45,504 nucleotides of DNA from Bilabrum cf. latius (GCA_965178125.1 OZ237765.1:806001-851504); one strand, 5' to 3'. Positions 1-45,504 are shown, counted from the first letter of the stretch. The notes: generated by a model not told the origin, from the letters alone. Numbers and translations are program-made.

Positions 1-1788
1 GTTGCACTCCCATCCTCCCCCATTCACGACGGGCAGCTGCTGCAGCGCGGCCCCTGGGATTATGCGATCTAGCCGTACCCCCCTATACCTGGCGAATGGT
101 CCTATCAGCGGAGATATCATCTCCTATGGCAGGGACCAAGCAGGTGACACCGGATCTTGGAGCGGTGTCGCGCTGCCATTCAGCGATGGGCTGGCTCGAG
201 GTCCACGAAGGCGAGATATAGGCGGGCGCCAGGCACCGTGGGATGGAGGGTATGCCCTGCGGAACTCGCCGCCTATGGTCACTGCTCGCGTGGAAGTGGC
301 CGCGGGATAGTCAAAGTGCACCAGATCTATGTTATACTCGCTGGTATTCACTGAGTATAGAGAAGCGCAGCCCAATTTGCCAGCCCTGCGCCAGGCAGGC
401 AGGGCCTTCTGAGCGTCCATCCAGGACTACGACGCGGCGCTGATGGCGGATTGGCTCCATTGCAATTTGTTATCGAAAGAATGATCGTTAGTGCCTGCCC
501 CTAGGGCGACAGTGGGGGAACAGTTCCTGGCCTGCACGCAGGAGGGGTCGTCCAGCAGCACGATGGCAGCGACCAGGACCGGCTCAGTGCCCCCCTTCTC
601 GCTGCTGCAGACCACGGTGCTGGCTTCAAGGGAGTGGCCGATGTCCATGGTGGGCACGGTGTCCATCATGGTTTGCGTCACGGGCACGCGGTTGAGGCGC
701 CATGGGTAGCCTGTCTGCGGGTATCCCAGGTGCAGCAGTCTGGAGCCGTTGGTGGGCAGCACGGCCACCGTGCCCGGAGGATAGGTCACCGACACCACCT
801 GGTGCCAGCGATTGCCCTGATGAGCAATATGTTCCTGCTGGGATCCCCCTCTGAAGCTGAAATACTACTCCACGACCCCCACCGCAGTGGTGGCCTGTGC
901 CACTGCGTAGTCTTGCTCGAACACAGACCGGTTGGCGAGGGATGGCCCTGTGTGCGGGATCAAGGGACATGCACCGGGCGATACAGCCCCATGGTCTGCA
1001 CTGGCAAACATGCCCCGACCTGGGTCTTCCCACTGAGGGGGCCACAGTGTGGCCTGTCTGCAAGTGTCGTTCGGTGCGATGGGCACGTCCATGGGGGTGC
1101 ACCTCGGGGAGTACAGCGCCCTGGGGCACACGGTGTGATGAGTGAACAGCCGAGGCTGTCTCATGTATCCGTATGTATTCAAGTCCACCTGTGTCCCTGC
1201 AGAGTAGTCCCTGTACACACGCGGCGATGTGAGGGGCTGCTGCGGGACGGGGCTCCAAGGCCGCTCTGACTCCCCGAGCCCGATGATGCCAGGCCACTGG
1301 TAGTAGCCAGCCGTGATCAAGCCGCCCGTGATGTGGTTGTCGGAGCTGCTAGGCTGTCGGAACTGAAAGAACCACTGCTCTTCCGTCCATGGCTCGACGC
1401 TGCGGGTCGGCGGGAACAGGGCGGACCGGCTTGTGGTGCAAGCAACAGCCAGTGCCGGCGGTTCTTGGGCGGTAGCTGCGGCTGGCGTGTACCCCTTATC
1501 GGCCGCCATTGTGGCAAAATTTAATATTTTGAGGGGGTTCCTAGCACTGACACCATTGGCTCGTGCTAACTGTCCCTCTGGACCTGCGCTCCAATTCCAC
1601 CGCATCGTAGCTTGATTTCGAATGGAGCCTGACCAGGGTTGCTGTACGACATCGCAGCCAAGCCCAATGTTCTGCTCCATGCTTTCGTTGTAATGGATGA
1701 TTCGCGAAGAACGAACAGCCGCCGGGCCAGTTCCTGTTGCATTAGCTGGCCAGGCTGCTCGCCACAATGCTGCTTGCCAGTGGGTCAA
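1..1788 (-). CDS. Hypothetical protein, running off the window at the 3' end; 5' structure uncertain
   Basis: ORFs 865-1788, 427-798 and 124-420 are one frame separated only by TAG (865, 427, 124), and the frame appears to stay open toward base 1. An in-frame TGA at 1855-1857 bounds it upstream. A signal-peptide-like segment (MMAIFAAILLHLGCDA, near 2010, another frame) could be a spliced first exon. No family recognised. Confidence 0.7.
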
Positions 1789-2117
1789 TCGGGAACGATT
1801 ACAACGGGATGCAACGAGTAAGAAAATGACCAGCTTCGTTCGATTGATTACTTCTCATGGTATTGTTAGTCTGTGTGCACTCACAATTGCACACGGGCTC
1901 GCTTTGCGAAGCGAAAGGCAGCAAAATACTCGCGCCTGCGTCTCGCATAGTCTCGATGGTCCTCGCATCACATCCCAGATGCAGCAGGATTGCAGCAAAG
2001 ATTGCCATCATTTCAGCGCATGCATGGATACTGTTGCTGGAGTGGATAGCTGCAGACTCTACAGTTGTGGAGTGTTTGTCTAGGCTTTGCGTTTGGTTCT
2101 CCATCTCGCCGATACCA

Positions 2118-5100
2118 TTAATCCGCACTCTTCTACTTGGCCTTCCCACCACGCTTACCCCGGCGGCGTTTCTTCGGTGGGGCTGAAGATTCTTCTGCTG
2201 CAGTCGCCTTTGCCGCTTTCTAGTCGCTCGAGCCGCCGGCCCCGCCCGCAGTTGCCTCCTCTTCAACTCTGCCCCTCTTTGACCCAATCGCCGGATCGCT
2301 GCTCGGCAACGCATCGGCACTTGGGTCTTCTGCCTCTCCAACCCCTGGCTATTCCTCGCCTAGCTCAGCAAGCCCACCAAAGTACCCCACCAGCGATTTT
2401 CCACCGGATGGCATGTCGCTGCTCCCGCTGGCACCAGCACCAGCACCAGCACCGGCCCCCGAGGCAGCACCGGCAGCACCTGGGGCACCCCTGGGGCCTC
2501 CCTCGCTCCCACTCGTCACACCCTTTACCACACCCTTGCCCCCTTTGGCCAGCAGCCCGGCCAGCGCTGCCCTCCTGCCCGCAGCCCCCCCGCCCGCCCC
2601 CTCTGCAGCCAGCCTGGCCTGCCTGGCCGCCTCCATGGCCCGCCTCCAGCCCGCCCTATCCTCGCGGTAATGGTCCAGCCGGCACAGCCCCACGAGCCCC
2701 CGGGCCCACCTGCTCCCCCGCACCCTCCTCTCCTGCGCCTCGAGGTCTCCAGCGATCACCTCCAGGGTCCGCGCGTCGCATGCAGCGGCCAACCGCCGCG
2801 CCACCCGGCTGCCCCGCGGGCTGTCTGCCACCTCCACCCACCGCCCGCGCAGACCCCGCACCACGCGCTGCCTGGCCCAAGCCGACTCGGGCCCCAGTGC
2901 GGCCAGCGGCTCTATCACCCCCCGGGCACAGGCAGGGTCCTGCGCGGCTGCCACCAGAGCCTCTGGCCGCAGTGCAAGCACTGACTCTAGGACTGGTCGC
3001 GCCGCCGCTGGCTGCAGCCCAAGGGCAGCGCCTACAACCCTGCTGCCAGCCCTGGACAGCTGCACCGGGCGATCTGCCCTGCCCTTGGGAGGCAATGGGG
3101 CCTTGCCACCACTCGTCTCCTCCTTGCCCTTGTTCTCTCCAGCCTTCGCCTTGCTGTGCGCAAGCCCCACCTCTTTGGCCGCCTCCTCCTCGTCGTCGCT
3201 GATGCCGAGGCTGCCCCCACCATCACTATCTGCACCGTCATCCTCCTCCTCCTCCTCCTCCTCTCCGCCTAAAGCACCTCGGGCAGCCTCGCGCGCCTCC
3301 TCTGCTGCCCGGCCCCGGCCCCCGTCCACGTCTAGCAGCCACGCCACCAGACCCCTGGCCCCGCTCCTGCATCGAGCCAGAGCCGCGGCCCGCTGCAGAG
3401 CACCCACAACCGCTCGCTGCAGGTCGAGAGAGCCCCCTTCTGCTGTCGCGGCCACCAGCGCGGCCACCACGCCCTCCCGCCTGGCACCCAGCAGTGCGGA
3501 CGTGTGTGGCAGCAGGGAGCGGGCGCACTGCAGTGCCATGCCCGCCTCTGCGGCCCGCTCCACCGCTCGCTGGGCCGCATAGTTGGCTAGTGGATGGGCC
3601 GCAAGCGCCAAGAGGGCGGTGGGGAACAAAGATGACGAGGTCGACGATGATGCTGCCGATGATGATGATGCTGCCGATGACGATGATGCAGCTGCGCTCC
3701 CCGAAGCAGGCAGAAGTCCGGCTGTGTGCGTGTCTGCGGGTGGTAGGGAGCGGATGGAGGCTGCCAGTCGCAAGGGGCAGGGGTGTGGGAGCGGGGCCAG
3801 CAGCACGTCGTCTAGCAGCCGACGCATGCCCACCGCGGGCATTGCCTCGATCGCTGCTTCCGCCAGGGCTGATCCAGCTTTTGAGGTTGCGACGGCCGCC
3901 ACAGCCTCGAGCTGGCGCGCTCGGACTGATAGGATCGCAGCTGACGAGTCCCCATCCACCGCGCCGCTGGCCCCACGTCCTTCCTCTTCCTGGCCGCCAT
4001 CTCCCCCCGCTGCCTCCTCCGGCCCCTCATCTCCAGACAGCCCCAGCATGGCGTCACAGGCCCGCTGCAGGGCAGCTCGCATGGCCCCTGCGAGCTCCTC
4101 GCACTCACCCGCGGTTGCAACCACCCCTCCAAGCGTGTGTATCACACCGACGTCTCCATCCTTGCTTTGGCCATCACCCTCGCTACCCCGTCCCTCCCCA
4201 GACTCCGGCTTCAGAGCGTCAAGCACCCCTGCCAGCGCGTCGCCTTCGAGTCCGTCTGCAGCGGGTTCTTTGCTTCCACCGTCCTACGCATCCCGCTTGC
4301 CACCCCCCTCGCGCCTCTTCCCCGTGCCCCTGCTGGCGCGCGAACCGAGACCTGCAGCCGCAGCCCGTAACCTCCTCACACAGCGGGCCCCCGCCGCCAG
4401 CAGCGCCTGCGCCGCCCCCGATGCCGCGGGCTCCTCCGCCACCAGCAGCGCATCCCTCGGGGATGCGTTCCCCAGCGCCTCAAGCAGGCGACCCAGGGCA
4501 AAGACGAGGGAGCGGCGCAGGCACCAGTCGCCCTTCTCCGCGTGCCTCGCGCCTGAGGCAGCCGACGCCCTGCGAGTACCAGTGGAGGATCCCCCCGCCT
4601 GCCTGGCCCCCACGCCGTCCCCGGCCAGTGCCGCGGCAAGCACCCGCACCACGTGGGACGCGCCCTTCTCGAACATCCACTGCCGGAGCTCTGACTCCGC
4701 CACTGCCGCCACCCCGAGCAGACATCCCTCGATCCCCTCAAGCAGAGCAGTGGGAGGCAAAGAGGCACCTTCCATCTCCTCCTCCTCGTCTGCCGCCGAG
4801 TCCTCCTTTAGGTCCTGTGGGAGAGCACCGTCGGTTGCACCAGCGAATACTGGAACTCTCTTCCGGCCAGATAATGTCCTGTTCTGGTCCACCTCTCCCG
4901 ACGCAACACTCAGCGATGCTGACAGGCCACCCAGCAGCTCTTCGAGCACGTGGGAACCGTACCGATGCCTGGCCAAAAACGAGACATAGGGCGAAGCTCG
5001 AGCCGCGAACTGGAAGAGTTGTACAGATGATGATCGTTTCAAGAGAAGCTCAATCACCCCGCTCGCTCGCTTATGAGTAGCAAGTGATGCCCCCCTTTTT

Positions 5101-5213
5101 CTAATGTCCCGATGAAGATTCTCCACAAGCAACGAGCTGGAGTCATCCTCTCCACCGGTCTCTGCTTCCATATCTTCCTATGACTACTGCAAAGGCACTA
5201 TCAGCGATTTCAT
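2118..5213 (-). CDS. NOP9: Nucleolar protein 9 (Pumilio/PUF-repeat 18S rRNA processing factor), at least ~1030 aa with TAG read as sense
   Basis: PUF-like repeats are visible: SLATHKRASGVIELLL, LARHRYGSHVLEELL, WMFEKGASHVVRVL, LAAHPLANYAAQR, VADSPRGSRVARRL. In-frame TAGs are at 5184, 5178, 4284, 2349, 2220 and 2133. The protein ends in a basic tail (PPKKRRRGKRGGKAK*KSAD) at TAA 2118-2120. The frame is open upstream of ATG 5213 (KPKKPDEELVSYM), so the true start is probably further 5'. Confidence 0.8.
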
Positions 5214-5506: not shown

Positions 5507-7111
5507 ATGATTGCAAGTGAATCGCAACGAAAACGCTAGAATAATGCCATGACGAGTTGTATGAATGATCTGAATCGCCCTGGAATCACAATGCAGGTGT
5601 TTATATTTATTGTAATCGTTGGGTTCGAAGCCATCGAAGGAACGCGGCGGATTTATAGAGAGGAATCTTACATATTTGACTGGGATGCATACATGGAGCA
5701 AGCGTCTATGGTGGCTGCCGGTGAGCGAAACTATACTCGAGTGAGGGGCGACACTGGAGCTTTGGTATACCCCGGCGCGCACACGGGCTTGCATGTGCTA
5801 CTGAGATACGCATCGGGCTGGGATGAATAGCACTGGACTACGGAGTACGTACCAAAGAATATATCCGGGTATGAAGATAGGACGCATCGTCCCACCGACC
5901 TGCTTCAGTCTCTTCAGCTAGGCTACACGGCGCTGCTCGCATGCTCCACTGGGCTTGCGGTCGCCACGCATCTGCTTGCAGGAGTCCCCATTCACTTCAT
6001 CCTTATCATCGTTGTGTCTCGGCGATTCCAGGCTGTGCACTCGCTGGGCCTCTTCAACGACTGCTGGTGCGCCATGGGGATGCACGCAGCCGTGCTGCTC
6101 GCCCAGCTGGGCCACTGGCACTGGTCCGTAGCCGCGTGGTCGCTGGCCGTGGGCATCAAGATGAATGCGCTCCTTCTGCTCCCGGGATACGTAGCCCTCC
6201 TCGCATTCGTCGCCTGGCAGCGGAGGAGCAGGCAGCCGTCCAGGACCAAGGGGCACCAAACACAGGCCGCCTCCTCGACCTCCTCGATGTGTTCCCTTGG
6301 CCCTATCGGGGTATTTCTCCAGAGCCAATGGCCCAGCATAGATGTTCCCTGGCTGCTTGAGCTAGTGTCAATCGCAGCACTGGTGCAGGCGGCGGTGGGG
6401 GCTCCTTTTTTGCTGTCGGCCCCCAGTGCCTACCTCGGGGGGGCCTTCAACCTGGGGCGGGCCTTCTTCCGGAAATACTCGGTGAGCTGGAACTTCTTGC
6501 CCGAGCCTTGGTTCCAGAGCAAGACATGGCACGTGGTGCTGCTGGCTGCACACGTACTGGGCGTGATTGGCCTATTGGGCAGCAGGGGGTGTGCAAGGTC
6601 TCTGACCCCTGTGATTGCTAGCCGCCAACGGGACCCAGGGGCTCTGCAGCGGCATGCGGACTCTGGGTCCAGGAGCCGGATCGGGTCCAAGCCACAGTCC
6701 GGTGGTGCTCTGCAGTCAGAACGCAATGACGGCGGGGACCAGACGCAGTCTTGGAAGACCGGGTTCGCTCTGGCCAGGCCGGGGTCCAGGGCCTGGGTTG
6801 CTGTGGCTCTTTACGGTAGCAACCTGATTGGAGTAGCCATGGCCCGGTCGCTGCACTACCAGTTCATCGTGTGGTACTGGGCGGGTCTCCCAGTCCTCCT
6901 GTGGGCCGCATCGCTGCCCTGGCCCGCCGCGTTGGTGTGGGCGGTGGCCCTCGAGGTGGGGTGGAACTGCCACGAGCCCAAGCCGTGGAGCTCTGTGCTC
7001 GTGACGGTGCTCCATGTTGCCCTGTGCGCAGCGCTGCTTGGGACTCGGATGGACGGCATGCGGAAGGTGGCAGTGCCCCGGGCTGCCAGAAGGGGGCCAG
7101 AGAGGCCGTGA
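5507..7111 (+). CDS. ALG3: Dol-P-Man:Man5GlcNAc2-PP-Dol alpha-1,3-mannosyltransferase (ALG3 family), ~534 aa
   Basis: Family motifs: DWDAYMEQ, GERNYTRVRGDTGALVYPGAH, LFND, SLAVGIKMNALL, FNLGRAF..YSVSWNFLPE, RSLHYQFIVWY. ORFs 5549-5830 and 6014-7111 are one frame joined through TAG 5828. There is a further TAG at 5537 if ATG 5507 is the start. Stop is TGA. Confidence 0.9.
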
Positions 7112-7283: not shown

Positions 7284-8612
7284 TCACCGGGTGTACTCGG
7301 TTCGCCGGCCGGGTGCGATCAGCCCGGCCGTGGCTGTGGGCTCATGAAAAACGGCCCGCAAAGGTAGCTTGACCTCACCCCCTGCTCCTGCTAGCCTGCC
7401 TGCGTGCATCATCTGCTTGCGCGTGGCAGGCGGCAAGGCCTTCGAGCGGGTGGCAAACAGGGGCGCGGGCAGCCTCGTCCTCGCCTTGGACTCGAGGGCC
7501 TGCCTCCATGAGGCAGGGATGGGGCGGGCCGATCTCCCTTGGGCCCTGCCCCCTTGCGATGGCACGGAGCGGGGGGTGCCCACCACTCCTGGGCTCTCCT
7601 GCCCGGTCATTGTGGGAGTCATGGTGCCGCTGGCCCTGCGACTGGACCCCCTAGACGGCCCTCGGGACTGCTTGGCGCCCCCCCCTCTGGCAAGGGCCAA
7701 CCCCGCCCATGGCACCCCGGCAGAGCCCCTGACCGGCCCATCTGCCACTGGTCCAGATGCAGTAGGTCCAATCGTGCGGCCTGCAATGCGCTGCTGGGCT
7801 CTGCGAGCTCTATAAGCCGCGCTTGAACTAGACGCGTCCACCCCGAGCTCAGGCCCGTGCTGCCTTTGGCCCCCTCGCGTCCTGTGCCCCGCCCCCCTTA
7901 TGTTGCTGCTGCTGTACATGGCACTGCGCGGCATGCCCGCGGTTTGGGGCTTCCATAGTGGAGCCCGGGTCTGCGCCTACTAATTTGGCCCCTCTGAATG
8001 CGGCTGGCTCCTCACACTTGAACGGCCAGAGCCGCTGGCCTCAGACTCGGCCCAACCCCATCCACCACTGGCTGGGTGCGGACGGCTTAGCGAGGCAAGC
8101 ATGTCCATCGGACTCGGGCCCGCCCTTGAGTGCGATGGAGTTTTGTGCTTACTGGGCCTTCTCGAACTATCGACCGGTGGGCGGCTTGGCTGTCGCGGGG
8201 GGATCCCGAGGGACTGCCGAAGCGTTGCGTAGTCGAACCTAGCTTGGTGCCTCCTCGGCTCCGGTGCCTTGGGAGACGGTGCCCCTGTTTTTCTGGCGTA
8301 AATTCTCTCCTTTTGTTGTGTAGACATCATCCTTGCTCTCATAGCACCGCTAACTACGTGCTCGCTTTCAGATTGAGGAAGTTTACTGCTTCGGGGCAGC
8401 TATCGGATTGGCTAACCGCTTACAACGAAATCGAATGTAGTCTTTCTTCCCACCGAAACGCCACGTCGTCTTAAATCATATTGTGGCAAGTACGGCACCT
8501 GTAGTCCGTCTACTCGAAGTACGTTTGCGGGATGGATCGGCCGTCCTCTTGAGTCTTGCGGGTGCACGTCGCCCCCCCGTAGTGACCTTCTCAAAGCTCG
8601 TGCATCCTACAT
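7284..8612 (-). CDS. Hypothetical basic, low-complexity protein, ~442 aa
   Basis: ATG at 8612 (ACC-ATG context). ORFs 8412-8594, 7980-8342 and 7284-7934 share one frame, with TAGs at 8607, 8412, 8400, 7980 and 7977 (the last two are tandem). Stop is TGA at 7284. Confidence 0.7.
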
Positions 8613-8835: not shown

Positions 8836-10500
8836 ATGGAATCAGATTCGAGCACATCTAGTCTAGGTGTGGATGAGCATCCGATTTTGTCGAAAGTTCT
8901 GGGTCGGCATGCACCATCGACTAGAACAAATGAGATCATGGCAGCAGCAGCAGGTGCCCGAACGCGAAAGAGACCGCGCCCAGCGGCAGCAGCATCGAAA
9001 GCTGATTCAAAAATTCAGAAGCATGAAGCAAGACGATAGGGTGGTGCATTTTGGAGCAAGGAGATTGAAGCTTGGATGTGTCCAATGCTGCGCAATGGGC
9101 CATATGGCTCTTGTGTTACGGAGAGCATACTGCAGCGCAATATCTCTTGCAGAGTCTTGCACGCTCCTAGCCACGAGGCAGCTAGCGTGCTTTAGGCGTG
9201 TGCAGTATCCATAAACCCCCCTGATAGTGGAGCTGTTACGGCCCAACACGCCCCGAATCGTAGTACCAGCGCCAGCGCCAGCAGTAGCACTAAGGCGAGC
9301 AACAGAGAAGGCGTCGAGATACACCCATAGATTTGGCCTCCTGTAGATAATTGTATTGGGTGGCGCCGTCGAAAGATGCTTAGTTCAGGACAGCTATCGA
9401 CCGATTCCGCAATTGAGCCGGTGGTGCTGCTCGTCTGGCACGGGGACCGGCTGGCCCGTCGGATCCTCAGCGGGGGAGGGGCTGCCCTCGAGCAAGACGC
9501 GCGGACAATCCGGTCCGTGTCTCCCCCTGGCACCCGCGTGCTGGTGGCGGTAGTGGCCATGCCCGAGGCCCTCCTCGCCCTGGGCGCGGATCGCCGGGGG
9601 CCGGCTGTGGGTCTCGGCGGTGCGGGGGAGGGCAAGGGGCACGCGCGGGGCATGCTGACCATGGGGGAGGTAGAGGACGCTATCGCGGGGTGGTACGTGC
9701 AGCATGGGGTGGAGGTCCGTCTGTTGGACGGTGCAGACCAGCTGGGGGCGTGGGTGGGCGCGCTGACCCGGGCTGTGGGCGAGCAGCCGTACAGGACGAA
9801 ACCCACTGCGCTGGCGGCGGTGCACAAGGTGAGGGCCACGGGGCTGCAGGACCTGCTGGGGGAGGGAGGCGCGCTGCTCCCTGGGGACAAAGAGGAAGGC
9901 GAGGAGGCTGATGCGGACGATGAGGGGGAGGATGGGGCGGGGGGCAGGAAGGGGGGCGCACCACCAGCCAAGAAGGGCAGGTTCGGGGGCGGCAAGGGGG
10001 CAGCGGCGCAGGCTGCTTCCCGCGCCGCCGCCCGCCGCAAGCGCCAGGACCCCCGCGCGGTGTTCTTCTGCCAGCTGCAGATGATCCCTGGGCTGAGCGC
10101 CAGCAAGGCGGTGAACGTGGTCAAGAAGTACCCCAGCATGGTGGCCCTCATGGAGGCCTATGACCGTGTGGCGCCACTCCCTGCCGTTCCACCCTTCGTG
10201 CATGCCGGGGAGGGGCACGGACCCATGGCCGCAGTCGCGTTCTCCGGCGCTGCTGCCCCATCGTCCTCGGCTTTGGCTGTGTCATCGGGCCCCGCTGGTC
10301 AGAAGGGCAAGCAGAAGAAAGGCAGGCACCGCAAGCAGCAAAGCCCACTGGAAGCAGGACTCGCGGCTCGCCGCGATTTGCTCTCCAGCGTGCTTGCAGC
10401 CGGCAAGCGCAGGTAGGGGGCTCTCTCTGCCCTGGTGCACGACGTGCTGTGTGGACTTGATCCGGACATGCCCCTCCTTGCGGCAGGTGGCAAGGGATGA
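8836..10500 (+). CDS. EME1: Crossover junction endonuclease EME1-like protein (non-catalytic ERCC4 domain plus HhH), ~554 aa
   Basis: Motifs PVDNCIGWRRRK, VEDAIAGWYVQHGVEVRL..QLGAWVGALTRAVGEQPYR, VFFCQLQMIPGLSASKAVNVVKKYPSMVALMEAY and RRDLLSSV...LCGLDPD match the EME1/MMS4 layout. No ERKxxxD catalytic motif is seen. TAGs at 9037, 9193, 9328 and 10414; stop TGA at 10498-10500. Confidence 0.75.
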
Positions 10501-10716: not shown

Positions 10717-13700
10717 TCATGGGGTAGGGTCAATGGTGGCCAGCAGGTGCGGCAGCCTCTCATGCAGCGTCTGCTGCACGCGCCAGAGCAGATCCGTGGC
10801 TCCGAACCTCGTCTCGGTGCATACCCCCAGCGCCTTGGCCAGCAGCTCCGCGGGGCCCTCCTGCCCGGGCTCGGACGCCCCAGTGGCGGACCGAAGGGCG
10901 CCGGCCTCGGACACCTGCAGCCCAGCCACGGCAGCCGACACGAGCGCTTCGGCAGCGGCCTTGTGCCCCTTTCTCGGCGTTACTGTGGGCGCCGTGTCGT
11001 GCACGCGCCCCAGGGCCAGCACGCCGCCCAGCACCCGCAGCACAGAGGCTGCCTCCTCCCTGAGAGCGCGCAGGGCCAGGGCAACCCGGCCCATGGCCGT
11101 GCCCTTGGCTTTCTCGTCGGCCGCAGCCGCCGCTGCTGTGGAGCTGGCCGTGGACCCACCGGCGGCGGCTCCATCGGCCGCCCCCGCTCCGCCCTTGCCT
11201 CGCTTGCCGCCCCGCTTGCGGCCACGCTTGCCCCCGGTCGCCTGCCCGGAGCCGCCTCCGCCCGTGATCACAGAGGCGCCCTGTGTCAGGGCCATGGCGG
11301 CATCTCCGCGGAACTTGAGCGCGGCCTGGGCGGGCGCCGACCTGGGCTCTGCCACAGCCAACAGCTCCTCGGGGAAGAGCCTCTCGATGGCGCTGGCGGC
11401 GATGGGCAGCAGCAGCAGCGTCTCGCCCACCAGCGGCGCCACCGATGCCAGGAACCCTGGGGCCACGGCGCCGGCAGCGGCGGACTTGGCAGCCACCTCT
11501 GCGGCGGCAGCAGGCTCGTCCTACAGATGGCCCGCCTCGGCCACTCGCCTGGCGGCAGCGAGCGCCCTGGGCACGGCCCCCGGCATGTGGTACTGCGCGC
11601 ACGTGGCGGCCACCGCGAGCCTGAGGGAAGCCTGCGCAGCCTTGAGCTTGGCCTCCGCCTGCGTCCAGTGCCCCTCGGCCGCCTTCGCCTTGTCCTCCCC
11701 GTCCTGCGCCTGGTCCCTGGCCTCGAGGGCCCTGAGCCTCTCCGAGTCCTCGCCCACCTCCTCGTCGTCGGGCTTGAGGCTCTCCAGGACGTTCTTGGCC
11801 GTGGCGCGGTCCGCCTCCTTCTGGGCCTTGGTCTTGGACAGCTTCTTGCCCTTCTTCTTGCCCTTGCCGCGCTTGCCCTTGCGCCCCTTCTTGCCGCTCG
11901 AGGCGCCCGGGTCGGCTGCCTCTGCCTCTGCCTCCGCGGCTCCTCCCTCGGCCGCCTCGCTGATGGCCACGCTCTCGGCGTAGTCCGCGGCCGCCTCCTC
12001 GGCAGAGGTGCCCTCCTCATCGATCACGATGGGCACTGCCTTCAGGGAGCCCTCGCAGCGGGCGGCCCGGCTGGCAGACAGTGCCGCGTCCACGGCGCGG
12101 AGGGATGCAGACCAGGCGGCCCAGGGGGCCTCCTTCCACGGCGCGTTGTCGCAGTCGTCCAGTGCGCACCTCTGGGCGGCACGGGGGTCGCGCAGGGGCT
12201 GCACGCCTGCCGGGGCCGCCTCCAGCAGCTCCGGCTGCACGCGTGCCTCCACCAGCGCGGGCTCGGTGGCCAGCAGCCTGAGGGCGGGCAGCCTGGAGCC
12301 CTCCTCGCCCTTGACCAGAGCGGCCGTGTGCGCCGCCACGGCCTCCTTGGCGGACCGCAGATCCACGTCCGCGGGCCTGTCCCCGGCGTGCATGCCCCGG
12401 GCGGCCAGCCTGACGGCTCCCGCGTCAGAGGCACCGGCGGCCAGCCCAGCATCGGCCCGGGCCACGATGGGCGTGTCCTCGCCCTCGCCCGCAGCCGCCT
12501 TCTGCTCCTCGCTGGGCAGCAGCCCGCACAGGCACAGCTGCTGCTTGAGCCGCATCAGCGCGTCGGCAGCGCCGCCCGGCCGCGCCGCCAGCAGCCGGTG
12601 CAGCAGCCTCAGCAGCAGGGTGCGCCTGCACACGCCGGCCACCGCCAGCCGCCTCTCGAGCCGCTGCCGCATGCCGATGGCAGACCCGGGGGCCGCCTCG
12701 TAAGACCCCGGCTGCAGCTGGCGGTCCGTCAGGTCAACGCTCTGCCGGAGCAGCGCCTCGGGGGGAGCTCCGAAGCCGAGCAGGTCGCGGCCCAGCCGCT
12801 CGCCCGTGCGTGCTGGGATGGTGGCGGACCGCACCGCCACACGGAGGTCCTCCAGCGGGGCCACGGGCAGCACGATGGCCGTCTGCGTGGAGTTGGCCTG
12901 GGCCAGCACCAGGGACCGAGCCATGCGCTCCCTGAGTCGGGCGAAGTGCACCACCTGGTGCAGCGTGTTGCGCAGCATCGCCACGCGCTGCACGGAGCCC
13001 AGCTGCGCCTGCTGCTGCTGGTTGCCCATGATCACCCGCTCCGCCAGTCCCTGCAGCTCGGAGTACGACCCCAGCCGTTCCAGGTCGGGGGCAAAGTGCG
13101 AGCTCACGCTCTCCCACTGCACGGACCGCACCCGGAGGTCATCCAGCACCCCGTGCGCCTCCTTGGCCGCACCCACCCAGGCAAGCAGCTTGGCACGCAG
13201 CAGCTGGGTGCGGTAGTCCGCGGTCCTGTCCTCCCTGGCCAGCTCGCACAGGGCAAGCGCCTCGAGGACGCAGTGCCGGGCCGCGGCCCTCGAGGCGGGG
13301 CTACCCTGCCCGCGCCTGACGTGCGCCTGGGCGGCATCAGCTAGGTAAGACGCCGCGATCACGGGCAGCTGGTCCGTGGGCAGGGTCGAGTCCCTGGCGC
13401 TCTGCTCCTGCGACTCGCGCACGATCCTGGCGAGCGCCTCAAGGGCGCGCTGCTTGCGGCGGGTCTCCTCGTCCCCTTGTCCCTGCACGTGCTTGAGCCG
13501 CTGCTGCCTCAGGCGCGCCGCCTTCTCCACGGCAGAGTGTGAGGCGGCCCCGGCCCTGCGCAGCTCGGCGGCAAGGCCACGGGTGACTCTGTACACAATG
13601 CCCGCCCGCCTGGCCTGATCCACCAGCGCCGCGGGGTCCTCAGGGTCGACGGTGCCCAGCACGCGCTGCGCCCGCATGGCCGACAAGAAGTGGCCGAGGC

Positions 13701-20300: not shown

Positions 20301-20551
20301 GTCCCTCCCCTCTCGGCAGCGGCGGGCAGGTGGGCATCAGGTGGGAGTGCCTGTAGGGAGCATTCGAGCTGCGGCCGCATGCCACCGATAGGGTTGGATC
20401 AATCGGTTTAAGTGACTCCAGTGGCAACAGCGATGCTGTGCTGTAGCTGGGTGATTCCTTCGTGCTGAGCCGAGAGGACGACGAAAGCCTGCAGCTCGAC
20501 AGCCCGGCCCTCATCAGGGAGGCCCTCAGGGAGTTTGACTCCAGGCCTTGA
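17327..20551 (+). CDS. Protein with N-terminal PPR-like helical repeats (possibly organellar RNA-binding), ~1074 aa
   Basis: GVPVPPSVYTAMLYRFA...EAQAGHRRAVQEGVRPNREAMGAMVLAAAR resembles PPR motifs, and the N-terminus is Arg/Ser-rich. One frame carries 12 TAGs (17894, 18254, 18821, 19487, 19580, 19883, 19898, 19943, 20090, 20171, 20354, 20444) and no TAA or TGA until TGA 20549. Start codon uncertain. Confidence 0.7.
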
Positions 20552-31883: not shown

Positions 31884-33485
31884 ATGAAAAGCTAGCACAG
31901 TGCCAGGAGACGTGATTGCTGCGGTCATGGCCGAAGATTCCTGAGCGTTCGAACCGTATCGGCGGCCGTAGCGATCCTGGGTCTGCTGCTTTTTGTGGTA
32001 TTATTGTGGCTTGGATCATCGAGCAATGCCAGAGGAATTAAGCGACATAAAGAATTGAGAAGCGCTGACACGAGAGTGGATGGCTGGATATCACAGGCAT
32101 ACATTGCAGATGTTGCCGATCTGCAACGGCAGGCGGCTTGCTTGTCGCACGAATCGGTGATTCCAAGGAGAGACCCAGTTGAAGTGGTGGTTTCTGTTGT
32201 GGTAGGAGGTGATAAGTAGAGGTACTGGCAGGAAGCACTGGCGCTGATCACGTCGATCCTACTCCACACCCCCAGGTTTGGGTATGCAGGCGGCGTATTC
32301 ATGGGCGCTTCGGAAATCGAAAAGGCTACCCCAAATCCGGTACTGCTGCAAGTTACGATTGTGACTGATATCCATGGCGCATGCGGACCTGCTGTCACGT
32401 TGGCATCCACCGCCGAGTCGGTTGCGTCGCACCTAGGCTGGGATGACAGGGCTTCGTTCACAGTGCGATCAGCCGATCATTGGCTGCGACCTCCAACAGG
32501 AGGCGCGGGCATGAGCGGCCTGCGGGCCCAGTCTCGACCACCTAGTCCTTATGCTGGTAGTCTCCCCCCGCCCTCTGACGAGGGTGTCCTCCAGTGGCTG
32601 TCCTCCCTGTGGGCCATCCCGAACGCGCACTACAGCGGCCGATTCGCTGAGTTCAAGCTGCACATTCCGGCCATGCAGTGGGAGACGCAGCGTTCGGAAG
32701 CAGTGCCAGGTCGTTCTGAGACAAAGCTCCCACGACTGCACATTGTGCTGGACACCGACATTGTGCTGCTGCCCGGCCAGCGAGGGCTGCTGGGGCTGTG
32801 GCAGCACGTGGTGGCGGCCCGTTCAGCTCGCCACCCTGATCCGCCCCCCTGCGTGTGGGCTGCTCGCGAGCAAAGCGGGTTCTATCAGTCGGATGCCCCG
32901 GCGGGTGGGCAGGGAGGCACCTACCGCTGGCCGTACCCCGCACCCCGGGGCGTCAACTCGGGAGTGCTCGTGTTTGACGTGGACGAGTGCACGTGCGCGA
33001 GAGGCGCGGACTCGGGCAGGGCATGCTCGCCCACTTGGGAGGGCATGGCCCAGGCGCTGCAGGACCTCCACCGGGAGCACCCCTCGTGGGAGCTGCAGCT
33101 GGGGGACCAGGATGCGCTGAATGCGGTGGGCAGCAGGATGGAGACCCTCATCGGCGAGCTGCCGTGCGAGTCCAACCTGCAGGACGCGGGGATGCAGGAG
33201 GACGCGCTCCTGTGCACGCACTCGATGCGCACGGGGGGGGGGGATGGGCTGCGCAGGCCCGCTGCCTTGCACCACAACCTGCTGGCCAAGAGGCACGGGC
33301 TGTTCAGGGGCATGAGCGAGGCTTTGGCGCAGGCGGCGGTGGACTGGCAGGCTAGGAACGAGAGTGTCCGGTGCACCGATGGGCGGCTCATTCAAAAGCA
33401 AGGGTGGTTCGCGGGCGACGCTCCGCACGTGCAATTGAATCGATGGCTGCGGGATGCGATGAAGACGAACGGGTGTCCATGGTAA
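31884..33485 (+). CDS. Glycosyltransferase family 8 (GXYLT/LARGE xylosyltransferase-like), type II membrane protein, ~533 aa
   Basis: N-terminal anchor VSAAVAILGLLLFVVLLWLG. Motifs VVVSVVVGGDK*RYWQEALALITSILLH, IVLDTDIV (DxD), GVNSGVLVFD, LQLGDQDALN, LPCESNLQ and ALHHN. TAGs at 31893 and 32217; stop TAA at 33483. Confidence 0.85.
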
Positions 33486-33524: not shown

Positions 33525-34785
33525 TCACGCCAGCACAACATCCACCTGATTGTACTCGTCCATGTCCTCCCCCAAGACCTCCATTTCGGCGTCTTCAGGG
33601 CAACCCGAATCAAGCAACTTGTCCCCATCGAAATCCATTCTCACTGCACTCGCAGACACGCTGATTTTCTCGGCGTACTTGGCTCGAATACTCGCGAAGG
33701 GCTCCCTCGGATGCACGGTCAGCTCCTCCACGGCGCCCCCCTCCTGCCGCAGCTTGAGCAACACATAGGCCTCTCTCCCTATCGTCATGTTCAAAGGGGT
33801 CCCACCGGGGCTACTCGGTCTCGCTGCAGCAGCTTTCTTCTTACTCCCAGCGGTTCTCCCTGCTCTCCCCTTGGCTCCTCCCGTAGCCCCTCCCTTGCTG
33901 CTATAGAGGCCTTCCAGCAAGTCGTCTGCGCCCATTTCGTCGTCATCGCCGCTGCTTATGTCAAAATCCTCATCCGAAGAGCTGGCATCTCCAGAAGCTG
34001 AGCCCAAATCCACCGATTTGGAAGCCTCCTTGCGACCACTGGCACGAGCCCGAGAGCGAGCAAGTGCGGAGGATGCCTTTCCTTGCGCTCGCTTCCGGGA
34101 CGGCGACGAGCTTGGCGAAAAGACGCCTCCAGACGTCTTGCCAAGATCAATTGTTTTCTTCCTGAGCTCCTCTTCTTTCGCTCTGAGGGCGTCAGCCTTG
34201 ACCTTCCACGCTGGGACCTCCGCTCCCGCGGCTGCCTTCGATCCCTTGGCACCTCGCCTCGATCGTGCCGACTATCTGGCTCTCTCGTACGCGCCACCAT
34301 CATCATCAATGTCCGAATCATCCGATATTTCGACTGCTTTGGCCTTTGACCTAAGCTTACGCCCACCCTTTCCACTGTTACTCGTAGCTACGTCGCCAGC
34401 CTTTCGTCGCTTTCTCCTCTGCTCGCGTTCGACCACTGCCACTGCAGAGTCGCGCTCCCGTTTCTTGCCTAGCTTGCCAGAAGCAACGGTCTTGCTTCCT
34501 TTGCCCTTCTTCTCCCTCGAGCTCCTGGCCCGATCGACAGCGCGGGCAAGTGCAACCTCTGCGTCACCATCGCTACCACTAGATCCTGTGGAGCTTTCCG
34601 AATCAGATATGTTAATTTCTTTCTCAATCTGGTCTAAATGGACTGCGAGAAGCGCTTAAACAACGAGCAGATCCAGCCAAGACTTGATCGCGTTCCGCTG
34701 GTGAGCTAGCCAAATTCGACTGTGCTTGCTTGTCAGGATTCTTACGCTTCTGAGCACGCTGCGCATAGAAATTGTCGCCGTCCAT
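33525..34785 (-). CDS. SUMO-like-domain protein (RENi: Rad60/Esc2/NIP45-like), ~385 aa; exons 34785-34746, 34642-33525
   Basis: The C-terminal segment LLKLRQEGGAVEELTVHPREPFASIRAKYAEKISVSASAVRMDFDGDKLLDSGCPEDAEME...QVDV is a SUMO-like fold with no terminal di-Gly. The N-terminus is low-complexity and charged. TAG at 34272; stop TGA. Confidence 0.75.
34643..34745 (-). other. Spliceosomal intron, 103 nt, phase 1
   Basis: C|GTAAGA ... GCTTCTCGCAG|TC; links MDGDNFYAQRAQK to LHLDQIEKE. Confidence 0.75.
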
Positions 34786-34931
34786 GGCAATATTACTTGC
34801 TATTAAGTGCCTCAACTGTGAACTGGTGTGCCACGTTCTTATCACAACAAAACAAAAACTTGCACTTGGTTCAACTCGGAGCTTGAGTTTTGGCCCTTGT
34901 CTTCCAGAGAAACCATGAGATCCGAAATGTC

Positions 34932-36383
34932 ATGAGCTTGATTCTTGTCGTTAAAATTGGTGGAGCCGCCATCACGGACAAGGCATCTGTCAAGACCTTG
35001 AGATCAGACCTTGAGACTATCGCGCGTTCGATCGCATTAGCATTCGGTAACCAATGCGAGCGTGGTCCCCACAGACTCGTTTTAACACATGGTGCAGGGT
35101 CATTCGGTCATCATGTAGCTACAGAGTATGGCTTTGGTTCGCTACCGGCGCCGTCAGACCCAAGAGCGTGCACGGAAGTTCGTAGCGATGTGCTTGAGTT
35201 GACTGGTCATGTCACCACAGCCTTGCGAAAGCTCAGAGTTCCTGCCACAGTGTTATCACCACACAGCATGGGGTGGGTGGCGGCGGGCCCACTTGAGTGC
35301 GGCCCACCTTTCAACCTATCAGGCACTACAACGCGGGTTGTCGCCGATGCAATCGTACGGCAGACAGTTCCTGTGATTCCTGGCGATGTGGTTCCCATCA
35401 AAGGGGCACTGGGATGGGCAATCATGGGAGGTGATCCCATTGCCGAAGTGCTAAGCTTAAATCTGCCACGGGATCTGTCGGAAGCGTCGGCTGCACTAGT
35501 GACCGATCATCGAGGGCCCCCGTGCACTGGCAGCACAGCTTCTGAAAAGAGCGCTCATGACTCTTGTAGGGGTGTTCATGTTGTCCATATCACTGGCGTG
35601 CCCGGCCTGTACACGAACGACCCGTCCGAGAGTGATGCGAGGCTCGTGCGGATCGTGGCTGTGGGTGGGCAGAGAGGAGGAGACATGACTGAGGCTGCGG
35701 CGACCGATCGCGCTCGTTCATCTGCAATGGACATTGCTGACTTAAGTAGCGTGCTGAAGCGTAGTCACGGCCTCCCGGAGCATGCAGTCGTCGAGGTGAG
35801 GCCCACACCTGGAGTGGCGTGGTGGGCCGTAGAGGACAGGGCCGCGGATGACTCGGGTTGCAGACCAGTTGGAGCATCTTCCGCTTCCAAGGCAGGCACG
35901 CCGGACCAGGTGTATGGCGTGGCTCCATTCATAGCTGCTGCTGGTCCTGCTGCGCCAGCGACCAATGGGAGCCACATGCACAGGGAAATTCCCTCTGTGA
36001 AGCCAATGGTGGGCGCGGCGGGGGCTGATCCCCCGCCAGGCGCATCAGCAACCACTACCGGTGATTCGGGCGCTCAACCCCAGACCGATGCATCGAAAGA
36101 AGCAATACCGGTAGCCGACGTGACCGGCGGCATCGGGGAGAAGGTGGCTAGTATCCTGCGGTCGGTGCGCGCAGGCCCGGACGCTGACCACTAGCAACGT
36201 ACGACTGCGACCATCGCAGGGGCAGCGGGGAGCGAGGTCGTGCTGCTTCGAGCCACAGCCAAGTAGAATCGCATGCCACTGGCTACAGACCTGGCAGAGT
36301 GGTGGGGGCTGCCAGGGACTCACTTCGTATCAGTGGAGGAGTTCGCCAGTAGGGCGCAAGGTGCCAGTGTGCAAGAAACATGA
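34932..36383 (+). CDS. IPK: Isopentenyl phosphate kinase (amino-acid-kinase superfamily), ~483 aa
   Basis: Motifs VVKIGGAAITDK, LTHGAGSFGHHVA (IPK signature His), VPVIPGDVV, IMGGDPI, GVPGLYTNDP and DVTGGIGEKV. The C-terminal W..PGTHF strand lies beyond TAGs 36192 and 36264. Stop is TGA at 36381. Confidence 0.85.
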
Positions 36384-36606: not shown

Positions 36607-38508
36607 TCACTGTCCCTCATCTGCCTCATCTTCCTCTTCCTCTTCTTCTTCCTCCTCTTCACCCTCCGGGATGGCAGACCCGGCCGCCGCTGCCACCGCC
36701 GCCAGCTCCTATTGCGCCTGCTCGTGCCCCAGCTTGGCCCCGCTGAACTCGGACTGCTGCCCCTCCACGCCCGCGCCTCCCCTGGCCTTGCCCGCCCCCT
36801 TGCGCAGCCGCTGCTGGAAGAGCGGCGACCTCTCCACTAGCGGGGCCACCAGCGCCAGGAAGGACTGCATCACCTGCTCGTCCTCCGTTGTGAAGGACCG
36901 CCCGTCGCTGCTGCCGCCGGAACCTGAGCCCAGCGCGCCAGCAGCCCCCGCCGCAGATCCAGGCCCCCCGGTGGGTCCCTGCACCTTGTTGATCAGCTGC
37001 ATCACGCCCACCAGCGTGCTGCTTGCTGGCGACACGACGGGCATCGTGAGCAACGCCCGAGTGCGATACCCCGTCTTGCGATCCACGTCCAGCCCGCTCC
37101 ACCTTTCGTCCGTGTACACGTCATCGATACGCACGGGCTTGCCCGACTGCGCCGCCAGCCCCGCGATCCCCTTATCGATGGGCACCCTCAGATCCACGTC
37201 TCCCTGCACCGCCCACAGCTCCCCATGCTCGTGGTCCGCCAGATAGAAGGTGCACCTGTCCGCGCCCACCAGCAAGGGGGCCTTGGAGGAGAGCTGGAAC
37301 ATGAGCGAGGGGGCGCCCAGGTCAGGGGCCTGAAGGGCACGCACCACGTCCAGCATGGCTTGGGCGCGGCGCTCCGAGGCCTGGGCCCGCGCGTGCACCT
37401 GCGCATTCCTGAGGGCTACTCCCGCCTGCTGGGCCAGCACCTGCAGGGCCTGCACGTCGCTCGACCCGAAGGTCCCGTCCCACACCCCGTCCGGCCTGTT
37501 CCCCCCGCGGCGGTTGACCGCCTGCAGCACGCCCACCACTTCCTCGTCGGCATCCAGCACGGGCAAGGCCACCACTGCTCGGGTGTGGAAGCCCATCTTC
37601 TCATCTGTCGCGCTGTCGAAGCGAGGGTCTTGCCGAGCGTCGGGAATGACGAGAGCCTCGCCCGAAGCCGCAACGGCACCCGCGATCCCGCTGCCCCACT
37701 TGAGCCGAGGAGCAGACTCGCCAGCGGAACTACTACCACCGGAAGTAGCTGCGGCAGCTGATCCAGCGGCTTGGGGTGCCGCAGTGCCCTACACCATCAC
37801 GAGCTCCCTGGTCTCGGTGGCACCCTAGCTCTGGCCCTCGTGCGAGGCACCCACGCCCTGTCTCTGCCTGTCCACTGCCAGCCAAACTGTCGCACGCTCG
37901 CAGTGCAGCAGCGCGCATGCCTCTGCAATTATGACTCTCACAGCCGCGTTCGGGTCCAGCTCGGCCGCAATCCTCCTTGAGCTGTCCAGCACGCGCTGCA
38001 GCAACGCTGCGCGGTCCTGCCCGGCCGCATGTGCGCCAGTCTCGCCAATTTCAGTACCTAACTTGATTGATTGTCCCTATGTTGCCTACCCCGATGACAC
38101 TGCCTGCATTGTTTGCTCAAACAGAGCGTCCGGCTCAGTCACGCGGAAGCCGGAGCCGGCTGGTCGGCCACTTACGGCCTTTGCTGCCAGGTCCCGGACA
38201 AATGCAATGGGATCATCTGGCTCAGCAGCTAGCACCTGAGAAACAAGAAAGTGAATGAAAGTTACCCCAGATGCGAGCGTTGCGACACGGGGGTGCAACA
38301 TTGCGTGAGCTTGCCGACGAATCGAAAGACACTTGAGACATACGGCGATCGTAGGGGCAAAGTCGAGAGAATTGAGTCCCAAATTTCACACAATGCCACA
38401 TGTTATGCTTAGTGTCCTCCTCACTTCAGCCGTCAGCCACTCGCAGACCCGTTTGAACCCAGTGCGCTCAAGTACAGCAGCCGAAGCTGGCCGTGTGGCA
38501 CTAGCCAT
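36607..38508 (-). CDS. RIIa/Dpy-30-like dimerization-docking domain plus two tandem GAF domains and an acidic tail, ~570 aa; exons 38508-38425, 38235-36607
   Basis: Spliced N-terminus KRVCEWLTAE|VLAAEPDDPIAFVRDL. GAF-A: LLHCERATVWL, GIAGAVAASGE, DPRFDSATDEKMGFHTRAVVALP, VGVLQAVN. GAF-B: GADRCTFYL, KGIAGLAAQSGK, DRKTGYRTRALLTMP, QLINK, FTTEDE. TAGs at 38086, 38077, 37825, 37789 and 36709; stop TGA at 36607. Confidence 0.85.
38236..38424 (-). other. Spliceosomal intron, 189 nt, phase 0
   Basis: GAA|GTGAGG ... TTTCTTGTTTCTCAG|GTG; splicing reconstitutes the D/D motif. Confidence 0.8.
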
Positions 38509-39563: not shown

Positions 39564-39624
39564 TATCTATTATAAAGTCAGGGACAGGGTCGGGGAAAAA
39601 TATTTTCATCTTCACTTTTTGACA

Positions 39625-41431: not shown

Positions 41432-41469
41432 ATTCATTGTACTTCATTCAGTGCAAGTATGGCGTATTG

Positions 41470-44012: not shown

Positions 44013-44275
44013 GTGTGGGTTTGGGAATCCAGTGGTTATTGACCGATATTCAATGTTGTGGCTCGTTCTACGTAGCCATATGTATGCGTTAACCTCCTTG
44101 GTCGATACATCGCTTTGACATCAGGTATTCGTTGGCTTATAGTCAAGACTAAATAGATTGCGTCCTGGCTCCTACTATCCCGTCCTAACGGGTCACTGGC
44201 TGGCACTCTGGCAAGCTCCTCTCACAAGCTGGCCCAGCTGCCACTGACCTCAATTGGTATCCGCCTGGCTGCTTT

Positions 44276-45504
44276 TCACTCGTTATCGGAGGAGGGTTCC
44301 GCATCGACAGCTGCCAGGAGCGCCTCAACAGCGTCCACGTCTGCTGCATTGAGATCTCCTTCCGCCGTCTTCTCGAGGGCCGTCATCAGGCCTACGAGCG
44401 TGCCCAACCCGTCGTCCCTCTCTTGAATTGTTTCCTGCACGTCCTCGAGCATGTCGTCGAGAGTTCGGCTGACGCCCAGCGCTATGTCATCGCAGGCAGC
44501 GAGGATGCGGTCCACCAGGTGCCGCTGCTAGTCGGTGAAGCCGTTGTCATCCACTCCACCGTCGTTCTCAGAGTCGTCTTGCTGGTTCTGGGCCTCGTTC
44601 TCTTCTTCCTCATCCAGCTCGTCCTGATCCTCCTCGTCCTGCTGCACGAGTTCTATCGGAGCCTCATCCTCGTCCTCTTCATCGGCTGCGTCTGCGTGGT
44701 ATCGATCACCGATCTCCTCTTCATCCTCCTCAGAGTCCTGTCGAGGCAGTGATGCTGCTGCTCCACTCCTTGCGCCTCTTGCTCCCCTCTTGTCCTGGCC
44801 AACGGCGTGGCGAGCTCCTCCGCCATAGCCCGGTTGGAGAATGGGCGATCGCTTGTGCTGTATCTTAGCCCGAGGTGCCGCTTCAGTCGCCTTCCTGCGC
44901 TCCGGTTCTGCCGGTTGCGCACCTTCATCCCTCGGCTTTCCCTTTGACTTTCCCTTTGACTTGCCCGCGGCCTTGGTCCTGGCCTTCAATTTGGCCTTTG
45001 CCTTTTCCCTGGCCTTGGCCTCCGCTCTCCGCTTGGGGCCGAGTAGGTCGTTGTTCAGTCGCTCGGTCTATGAGTCGCTGGACTCTGAGCCGTCTGAATC
45101 TTGCTCGCCTCGTTTCCTCTGGGCCTTGTAGGCACTGTGGTCCGCGACACCGTCGTCGGGGTCGTCCTCGTCGTCGTCGACCATGGCACTCCGTTTGTCC
45201 TTGCCAGCACGGGGTGCTCCACTCGGCGAAGCAGCAGCGGCTCCCGCAGAAGCATCTTGGTCCCCTGCGGCTGCCGCGGCAGAGTCCTTGACTGCCATGT
45301 CAAACACGTCTTGGAACACAGCCTGCATGCCTCCACGCGCACGCACAGAGGCTTTCCCAGCTCCGTAGTCGCAGACGAACTTGATCGCGGTCTTGTAGTT
45401 CCTCCGCAAGCCATCCATGCCTGCCTTGAACCAAGGATTGTGGCTGGTAGAGTAGCCGCTGTCGCGCAGGCCCATGAGCATCTAATTCATCTTGCGGTAG
45501 CCTG
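44276..45504 (-). CDS. Hypothetical charged low-complexity protein, 5'-truncated by the window edge
   Basis: ORFs 45068-45481, 44528-44989 and 44276-44515 share one frame, with TAGs at 45482, 45068 and 44528. The frame is open to the window end. Stop is TGA at 44276. No family recognised. Confidence 0.75.

Follow-up and report, generated by a model that had tools for sequence, protein, structure and literature searches.

A probable nuclear genetic code with UAG as glutamine and UAA and UGA as stops in a GC-rich genome segment from Bilabrum cf. latius

How can a gene-dense stretch of nuclear DNA be translated when TAG interrupts its genes throughout? This question is raised by a segment of 45,504 nucleotides (nt) from Bilabrum cf. 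latius (GCA_965178125.1, OZ237765.1:806001-851504), hereafter the window, in which all positions are counted from the first letter. Its G+C content is 62%, and its genes are densely packed on both strands. With the standard code, long open reading frames (ORFs) are broken across the window; with readthrough at TAG only, the longest ones reach 1904, 1650, 1230 and 1093 codons. An earlier note on this DNA had proposed that TAG is a sense codon, most likely for glutamine (Gln), and that TAA and TGA are the remaining stops. We reached the same reading: the counts of in-frame triplets, contigs of spliced transcripts, a CCQCSW motif in the homologues of one protein and the alignment columns of a related species all agree on TAG, and TAA and TGA are absent in frame and found at all visible gene ends. 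It is thus very probable that the nuclear code assigns UAG to Gln and keeps UAA and UGA as stops, apparently the only ones, i.e. that it is of the NCBI table 15 type. UAG is a minor synonym of CAG, representing approximately 13% of Gln codons.

With TAA and TGA as the only stops, 74 TAGs fall inside the 17 ORFs of the window, and 69 of them are downstream of the first ATG; the earlier note had counted about 73 TAGs in 17 genes. As part of these TAGs falls in doubtful 5' regions, we also defined conservative coding ranges for 16 genes, each beginning at the likely start or at the first codon with support and ending at the stop (10,755 codons). They hold 61 TAGs in frame and not a single TAA or TGA, as had been claimed. 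Read in the +1 and +2 frames, these ranges (21,478 triplets) contain 344 TGA, 135 TAG and 47 TAA, TGA being the commonest; if the in-frame stop triplets followed those off-frame proportions, TAG would make up all 61 with a probability of about 1e-36. Ranges backed by family matches alone contain 16 TAGs, no TAA and no TGA in frame (4818 codons). The visible ends of the 16 genes are 12 TGA, four TAA and no TAG, the same tally as obtained previously.

The seventeenth ORF, g01, was left out of the conservative set. Its composition is odd, and neither its codon usage nor a Pfam search gave a signal; it may be non-coding or correspond to a gene in another frame with introns. As a TAG-bearing gene it was rejected for want of codon-statistic or family support, and its three TAGs should be left uncounted. 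The ORFs are as follows.

1-1854, minus strand: ORF g01, 618 codons, three TAGs.
2118..5213, minus strand: NOP9/APUM23-like PUF gene; six TAGs (2133, 2220, 2349, 4284, 5178, 5184); ends with TAA.
5591..7111, plus strand: ALG3 mannosyltransferase gene; one TAG (5828-5830); ends with TGA.
7284..8606, minus strand: g04, no family; four TAGs (7977, 7980, 8400, 8412); ends with TGA.
8836..10500, plus strand: EME1-like gene; four TAGs (9037, 9193, 9328, 10414); ends with TGA.
10717..16149, minus strand: NAA25 (NatB auxiliary subunit) gene; three TAGs (11521, 13810, 15550); ends with TGA.
17465..20551, plus strand: g07, lineage-specific; 12 TAGs; ends with TGA; positive codon score.
21197..23227, plus strand: g08, acidic repeat protein; two TAGs (21221, 21428); ends with TGA; strong codon score.
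23313..23948, minus strand: g08b, small hydrophobic protein; three TAGs (23511, 23520, 23832); ends with TGA.
24177..28622, minus strand: g09, long low-complexity protein; seven TAGs; ends with TAA; one 5' intron.
29551..30327, plus strand: CFAP418/C8orf37-like gene (RMP domain); three TAGs (29794, 30166, 30193); ends with TAA.
30413..31693, minus strand: g11, no family; four TAGs (31244, 31535, 31559, 31574); ends with TGA.
31884..33485, plus strand: type-II membrane protein, 'GT8' of the earlier note; two TAGs (31893, 32217); ends with TAA.
33525..34642, minus strand: gene with a Rad60-SLD (SUMO-like) domain matched in Pfam; one TAG (34272); ends with TGA; one intron.
34932..36383, plus strand: isopentenyl phosphate kinase gene; two TAGs (36192, 36264); ends with TGA.
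36607..38232, minus strand: tandem-GAF gene, exon 2 onward; five TAGs (36709, 37789, 37825, 38077, 38086); ends with TGA.
44276..45481, minus strand: g16, acidic protein, running off the window; two TAGs (44528, 45068); ends with TGA; strong codon score.

Over the 45.5 kb, in-frame TAGs are found inside or between domains supported by Pfam or PDB matches, and in the alignments of four orthologues. The continuity of domains past TAG, as previously described, was recovered for ALG3, NAA25, the GAF protein and the CFAP418-like protein, and for the EME1-like protein by orthologue alignment; the NOP9-like protein can be added. It was not recovered for the isopentenyl phosphate kinase (Pfam AA_kinase match; isopentenyl phosphate kinases in PDB, E=2e-13), whose PDB alignments end upstream of both TAGs. 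The TAG of ALG3 (Pfam ALG3, E=8e-74) immediately precedes a conserved WTTEY block in the first 14 homologues listed (P0002-P0014), and its own column is variable among homologues (A, V, T, R, D, S, Q) and hence uninformative on the amino acid. The GAF domain envelope (Pfam GAF, E=2e-31) includes TAGs 37825 and 37789, and in the CFAP418-like protein (Pfam RMP, E=2e-18) a conserved W near the C-terminus lies downstream of the last TAG. NAA25 has a Pfam NatB_MDM20 match. In the NOP9-like protein (Pfam PUF_NOP9, E=3e-36), PDB matches to Pumilio homolog 23 flank TAG 4284 on both sides; a whole-length homologue search gave no match, probably swamped by low-complexity words.

A related species likewise requires TAG to be a sense codon. 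It is represented by a 9134-nt contig from one metagenome scan (L002) and by a contig from a second sample (L001), two separate metagenome records that are 100% identical over the aligned 3462 nt. L002 contains ALG3, g04, EME1 and NAA25 in the same order as the window, with protein identities of 57% for ALG3, 43% for g04, 57% for EME1 and 76.5% for NAA25 (the latter over 1428 amino acids) and a DNA identity of approximately 70%. The EME1 alignment comprises 514 aligned amino acids, spans all TAGs and extends to two codons from the end; for g04, tblastn gave 50% identity over 139 amino acids, and the alignment extends to the common stop. The L002 NAA25 ORF has 1444 codons with TAG readthrough and 644 without. 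Over its 2826 codons, L002 has 20 TAGs and no TAA or TGA in frame, and its four gene ends are all TGA or TAA, that of ALG3 being TAA. TAG accounts for 13.5% of CAG, CAA and TAG codons together in the window and for 16.9% in L002. No TAG position is common to the two species; in NAA25, TAG 11521 of the window is opposite CAA in L002, and eight TAGs of L002 are opposite CAG in the window. Judging from these alignments, TAG and CAG interchange freely between both species, like synonymous codons, and at least one further species, at approximately 70% DNA identity, shares TAG as a sense codon.

The same alignments bear on the identity of the amino acid. They contain 32 TAG sites, counted in both directions, two of which are opposite a gap and 30 opposite a residue: Q in 12 cases, R in four, S in three, E, I and A in two each, and G, L, Y, P and D in one each. 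The codons behind the 12 Q partners are CAG (10) and CAA (two). In the 14 well-conserved TAG columns, i.e. those with an identity of 70% or more over the 20 columns around them, there are 11 Q, two R and one E. When scored with a substitution table that these alignments themselves supplied, the partners have a log10 likelihood of -31.0 if TAG stands for Q; S, the runner-up, reaches -45.0. Between the window and L002, Q is found opposite 59% of ordinary CAG, 28% of CAA and 40% of TAG codons; therefore, TAG behaves as a Gln codon. In addition, the TAG at 30166-30168 of the CFAP418-like gene lies within CC-TAG-CSW, which reads CCQCSW in all three homologues found (the search returned three proteins in all), and conservation runs on to the C-terminus. 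There is thus a strong preference for Gln opposite TAG, the pattern that the earlier note had named as a check, and on these alignments the meaning of UAG as Gln appears settled with high confidence.

A search of 1.8 billion representatives with g07 yielded fragment ends only and no Gln columns. The matches are short ORF pieces from a close strain, 82-97% identical, three of which are on a contig of equal length (2142 nt). These pieces terminate where the window has TAG (one site) or CAG (two sites), and a fourth fragment end, that of a 40%-identical protein, is opposite a CAG of the window. The stop codons at these fragment ends are presumably TAG.

To find out what happens to TAG in other data, we compared the contigs of four public runs from four studies (X1, X5, X7 and X8) with positions 23300-38800 of the window. 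They match without any differing letter or indel. X1 has a flat depth and no joints, as expected of DNA. In X5 and X7, the depth differs approximately ten-fold between genes and three joints are seen, with no joint-containing contigs in X1 and X8. The joints correspond to the following introns.

28978-29186, minus strand: intron of g09, GTGAGA..CGCAG; spliced X5 contig.
34643-34745, minus strand: intron of the Rad60-SLD gene, GTAAGA..CGCAG; joint in X5 and X7.
38233-38421, minus strand: intron of the tandem-GAF gene, GTGAGG..CAG, exon 1 starting from 38422; X5 and X7 contigs (from 36814 or 36780 to 38232) joined to 38422-38565.

All three are canonical GT..AG introns with approximately 50% G+C and a pyrimidine tract; TAA and TGA occur within them in several frames, and only one of the three lengths is a multiple of 3. 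They are the only well-supported introns in these 15.5 kb, short (103-209 nt) and all in minus-strand genes, each located at the 5' end of its ORF or immediately upstream of it; the genes are otherwise intronless.

Because the canonical intron joints are present in X5 and X7 and absent from X1 and X8, and given the uneven depth, we infer that X5 and X7 contain spliced RNA. Of the 29 TAGs between 23300 and 38800, 22 are inside the listed X5 and X7 pieces with no difference, and the spliced GAF transcript contigs of both runs have four TAGs unchanged. Base-calling error, splicing-out and U-to-C editing are therefore excluded there. The earlier note had pointed to CAG in the reads, or removal or editing of UAG in the messenger RNA (mRNA), as ways in which its proposal could fail; the independent runs have TAG, and the spliced transcripts retain it. 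By gene, all four TAGs of g11 are within X5 and X8 pieces, both TAGs of the 31884..33485 gene within the X5 contig 30905-33231 and both TAGs of the isopentenyl phosphate kinase gene in an X5 contig. Three of the seven TAGs of g09 are in X5 pieces, as is another one, 28878, located upstream of the conservative range, and g08b is covered by the X7 contig 23370-24012. There are no differences in g08b, in g11, in the isopentenyl phosphate kinase gene or in the g09 pieces.

Several points weigh against this reading or parts of it. Firstly, 18 of the 30 partners of TAG are residues other than Q; among them are R at two well-conserved positions of EME1 and E at one position of NAA25. Such a pattern is compatible with the usual substitution of Gln, though it is no proof. 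Secondly, the ORFs were bounded by TAA and TGA, so the tally of end codons is partly obtained by construction, and a genuinely terminating TAG would then appear as a late internal TAG. The last TAG is indeed at most 45 codons from the ORF end in six of the 16 genes (EME1, CFAP418, NOP9, g07, isopentenyl phosphate kinase and GAF), and in NOP9 it is five codons before the TAA. Thirdly, X5 is labelled 'RNA? (probably DNA)', and none of the runs listed for this stretch is recorded as RNA. Fourthly, ARAGORN detected no transfer RNA (tRNA) gene in the window (45.5 kb) or in contigs L001-L003 (14.5 kb), so that the decoding tRNA was not seen, and the eRF1 gene is not in the window. Rfam at the gathering threshold found nothing. 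Finally, the placement of the organism near Cafeteria, described below, involves one gene, one named neighbour and long branches.

How UAG would be decoded can be deduced from established knowledge. A tRNA-Gln with anticodon CUA, which is one mutation away from tRNA-Gln(CUG), would decode UAG but not UAA, and the N-domain of eRF1 would have lost efficient recognition of UAG, with recognition of UAA and UGA kept. By analogy with the account given in the cited text of PMC5304391, we consider this combination of tRNA(CUA) and modified eRF1 a likely mechanism. Its main rival leads to an identical code table by a different route: UAG would be read as Gln without a dedicated tRNA(CUA), by near-cognate pairing with the normal tRNA-Gln(CUG), which would be efficient once the release factor has ceased to compete for UAG. 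The lack of a CUA tRNA in the 45.5 and 14.5 kb scanned is consistent with this idea, as are a preprint on UAG readthrough by near-cognate tRNA-Gln in standard-code organisms (PMC13192750) and the statement by Panek et al. 2017 (PMC5304391, cited section) that the decoding tRNAs of most eukaryotic variant codes are unknown. However, 12 UAGs in one gene, and UAGs in essentially all genes, would require very efficient decoding, and cognate tRNA-Gln(CUA) genes exist in Tetrahymena, Condylostoma and Spironucleus, as the same section reports (PMC5304391). We therefore find the near-cognate route unlikely, albeit the best of the alternatives.

The proposed code also requires that UAA and UGA remain stops. 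If TAA were used relative to CAA as TAG is relative to CAG, approximately 14 in-frame TAAs would be expected in the window and 11.6 in L002, and none is observed in either (P ~8e-7 for the window); UAA ends four of the 16 genes of the window. UGA ends the other 12 and is likewise absent in frame, though commonest off-frame. Support for these ends that does not depend on how the ORFs were delimited comes from the four orthologous pairs, all of which align to within a few codons of the TGA or TAA ends; in NAA25 and g04, the stops themselves align. In the two species together, none of 20 gene ends needs TAG, an outcome with a chance of 0.012 if TAG were used at 20% of ends.

Two other codes were considered and rejected. 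A code of type 6, with both UAA and UAG as Gln, is contradicted by the zero in-frame TAAs in 10,755 and 2826 codons, against approximately 14 and 11.6 expected. A code in which all stops have sense meanings, as in Condylostoma or Blastocrithidia, does not fit either: TAG is the sole stop triplet found in frame.

UAG might still be ambiguous, i.e. read as Gln inside genes and as a terminator near the 3' ends of some mRNAs, depending on context. The six genes of 16 with a late TAG, against approximately 3.3 of 15 expected from TAG density by a rough estimate, represent a weak excess in that direction. We compared the tails of two of these six, EME1 and CFAP418, with their homologues, and in both the sequence past the last TAG is conserved. 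Together with the four of four orthologue pairs that align to TGA or TAA ends, and with the gene ends, none of which needs TAG, this makes a dual role of UAG improbable, more so than the near-cognate route, though UAG may occasionally terminate in the other four (NOP9, g07, isopentenyl phosphate kinase and GAF).

As for UAG encoding another residue, such as Glu, Arg, Leu, Ser or pyrrolysine, the R (four), S (three) and E (two) found among the 30 partners could be invoked, and UAG does stand for Leu, Ser or Glu elsewhere, according to the cited part of PMC11687900; but Q is ahead of every residue by approximately 14 log10 units and occupies 11 of 14 conserved columns as well as the invariant CCQCSW column, which leaves very little room for such an assignment. 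It was also considered that the TAGs are not translated at all: they might be C-to-T sequencing or assembly errors, mutations of pseudogenes, introns in frame, or positions that mRNA editing turns into CAG. This idea was raised because one transition converts CAG into TAG and introns exist here; it found no support and can be practically dismissed: C-to-T damage would yield 64% TAG, 15% TAA and 21% TGA (from the CAG, CAA and CGA counts) and not 61:0:0, the runs of the four studies do not differ in a single letter, the 22 of 29 TAGs persist in spliced contigs, the true introns hold TAA and TGA in several frames with two lengths that are not multiples of 3, and the second species carries its own 20 TAGs at other Gln positions.

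The other products of the window deserve a few comments. A Pfam search at E<=5 assigned no family to the 31884..33485 protein, g07, g11, g04 or g01, and a PDB sequence search returned nothing for the first of these or for the EME1-like protein, whose match to Pfam EME1-MUS81_C (E=0.01) is below threshold. The name 'GT8' is thus not borne out by these searches. The protein has a membrane anchor at its N-terminus and, by eye, DTD and NSGV motifs, which we take to be typical of GT8-like enzymes. A single CTAG at 31892-31895 provides an in-frame TAG to both divergent, overlapping ORFs, that of this gene on the plus strand and that of g11 on the minus strand; the g11 copy is upstream of the likely start and probably untranslated. 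The codon statistics of g04 are weak. Between 21545 and 23010, g08 is very acidic, with near-identical tandem repeats of 150 bp (x4.2) and 153 bp (x2.7) and runs of GAG, and it has no family match.

The region 38852-44009 is of a different nature. It harbours an interstitial telomere-like array, (TTAGGG)x93, at 39007-39564, preceded by a 53-bp repeat (x2.9). Two satellites come after the array, one of 155 bp (x11.7, 39625-41435) and one of 22 bp (x115, 41470-44009), and then an ordinary gene, g16. This could be a chromosome end misjoined by the assembler or a true internal relic of a telomere or subtelomere.

Which organism is this, and did the code arise independently? The best named match of the ALG3 protein is that of Cafeteria roenbergensis, with 35% identity. 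We built a maximum-likelihood tree with 40 of 52 ALG3 rows, having dropped rows of less than 330 amino acids and nine extra land-plant or Daphnia rows. In this tree, the window and L002 proteins are sisters (100/100), and the pair is sister to a clade containing Cafeteria (97/89). We tentatively regard the organism as a Cafeteria-related (bicosoecid) stramenopile. The CFAP418/RMP homologue is the sole basis on which the organism might be called a flagellate. The Cafeteria ALG3 protein is a full-length standard-code prediction, and Cafeteria presumably uses the standard code.

Because the ALG3 tree groups the organism with Cafeteria, at a distance from the fornicates and ciliates mentioned in the cited text of PMC11687900, an independent origin of the UAG-to-Gln change is plausible and, on this tree, probable. 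With TAG already at approximately 13-17% of Gln codons and not one TAG position common to both species, the change would be old and fully fixed. On balance, we lean towards the view that at least two heterotrophic stramenopiles, GC-rich and related to Cafeteria, form a clade that independently evolved a code with UAG as Gln and UAA and UGA as stops, which would be the first nuclear stop reassignment in stramenopiles. Our literature search, outside of which lay most subscription journals and supplements, found no report that UAG is reassigned in the nucleus of a stramenopile, a bicosoecid or a heterotrophic flagellate; those who deposited the assembly may already be aware of the code.

Positions 29000-38500 of the window are found, in whole or in part, in 14 runs from nine studies, under at least eight organism labels and in metagenomes labelled 'protist' and 'algae'. 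This suggests, as a hint only, that the organism travels with other cultures, and it may be culturable, given the runs filed under several organism names.

Few nuclear codes give UAG and UAA different meanings. One more case, apparently of separate origin, from a GC-rich lineage close to Cafeteria would provide data on the long-standing question of how one eRF1 drops UAG and keeps UAA and UGA, and it bears on the choice between codon capture under GC pressure and a route through an ambiguous intermediate. As genomic DNA, transcripts and a second species are available, the tRNA and eRF1 predictions are directly testable. If the stramenopile clade is confirmed, it would offer a tractable, GC-rich, non-ciliate model for an eRF1 that has lost UAG yet kept UAA. 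In practice, annotation of this genome and its relatives with the standard code splits nearly every gene, and databases already contain such ORF fragments, as shown by g07.

How does this code compare with known ones? Nuclear cases in which UAG differs from UAA, as named in the cited text of PMC11687900, are a rhizarian (Leu), Iotanema (Gln), Scotinosphaera (Ser) and Protocruzia (Gln), to which are added an uncultured ciliate (UAA as Lys and UAG as Glu) and phyllopharyngean ciliates (Gln twice, and Leu). The fornicate Iotanema spirale has the same table, with UAG alone as Gln and UAA and UGA as stops, and the same mechanism is predicted for it, tRNA-Gln(CUA) with a change in eRF1, for which a T32G substitution in the GTS motif is reported in the cited part of that study (Panek et al. 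2017, PMC5304391). However, Iotanema is a metamonad and its code was deduced from a transcriptome (PMC5304391, same part), whereas the window belongs to a putative relative of Cafeteria and combines genomic DNA, spliced transcripts and a second species. The phyllopharyngean ciliates and Protocruzia tuzeti likewise have UAG alone as Gln and UAA as a stop, with repeated independent origins, according to the cited text of McGowan et al. 2024 (PMC11687900).

The window differs from those ciliates in its TTAGGG repeats, its 62% G+C, its spliceosomal introns and an ALG3 protein that is nearest to that of Cafeteria. Ciliate genomes are typically AT-rich and have other telomere repeats. Code 6, found in many ciliates, hexamitin diplomonads, some ulvophytes and Amoeboaphelidium (PMC11687900, cited text), has in common with the present code the change from stop to Gln and the retention of UGA as a stop, but it reassigns UAA too, in contrast with the window, where no TAA is in frame against approximately 14 expected and four of 16 genes end with TAA. 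In the rhizarian exLh (UAG as Leu) and in Scotinosphaera (UAG as Ser), UAG and UAA are uncoupled as well, as far as the cited parts of PMC5304391 and PMC11687900 describe them, but the amino acids differ: in the window, Gln is more likely than either Leu or Ser by 14 log10 units or more. Thus, the type of code is already known from Iotanema and Protocruzia (the table 15 type), and the window represents an additional case of it, not a new kind.

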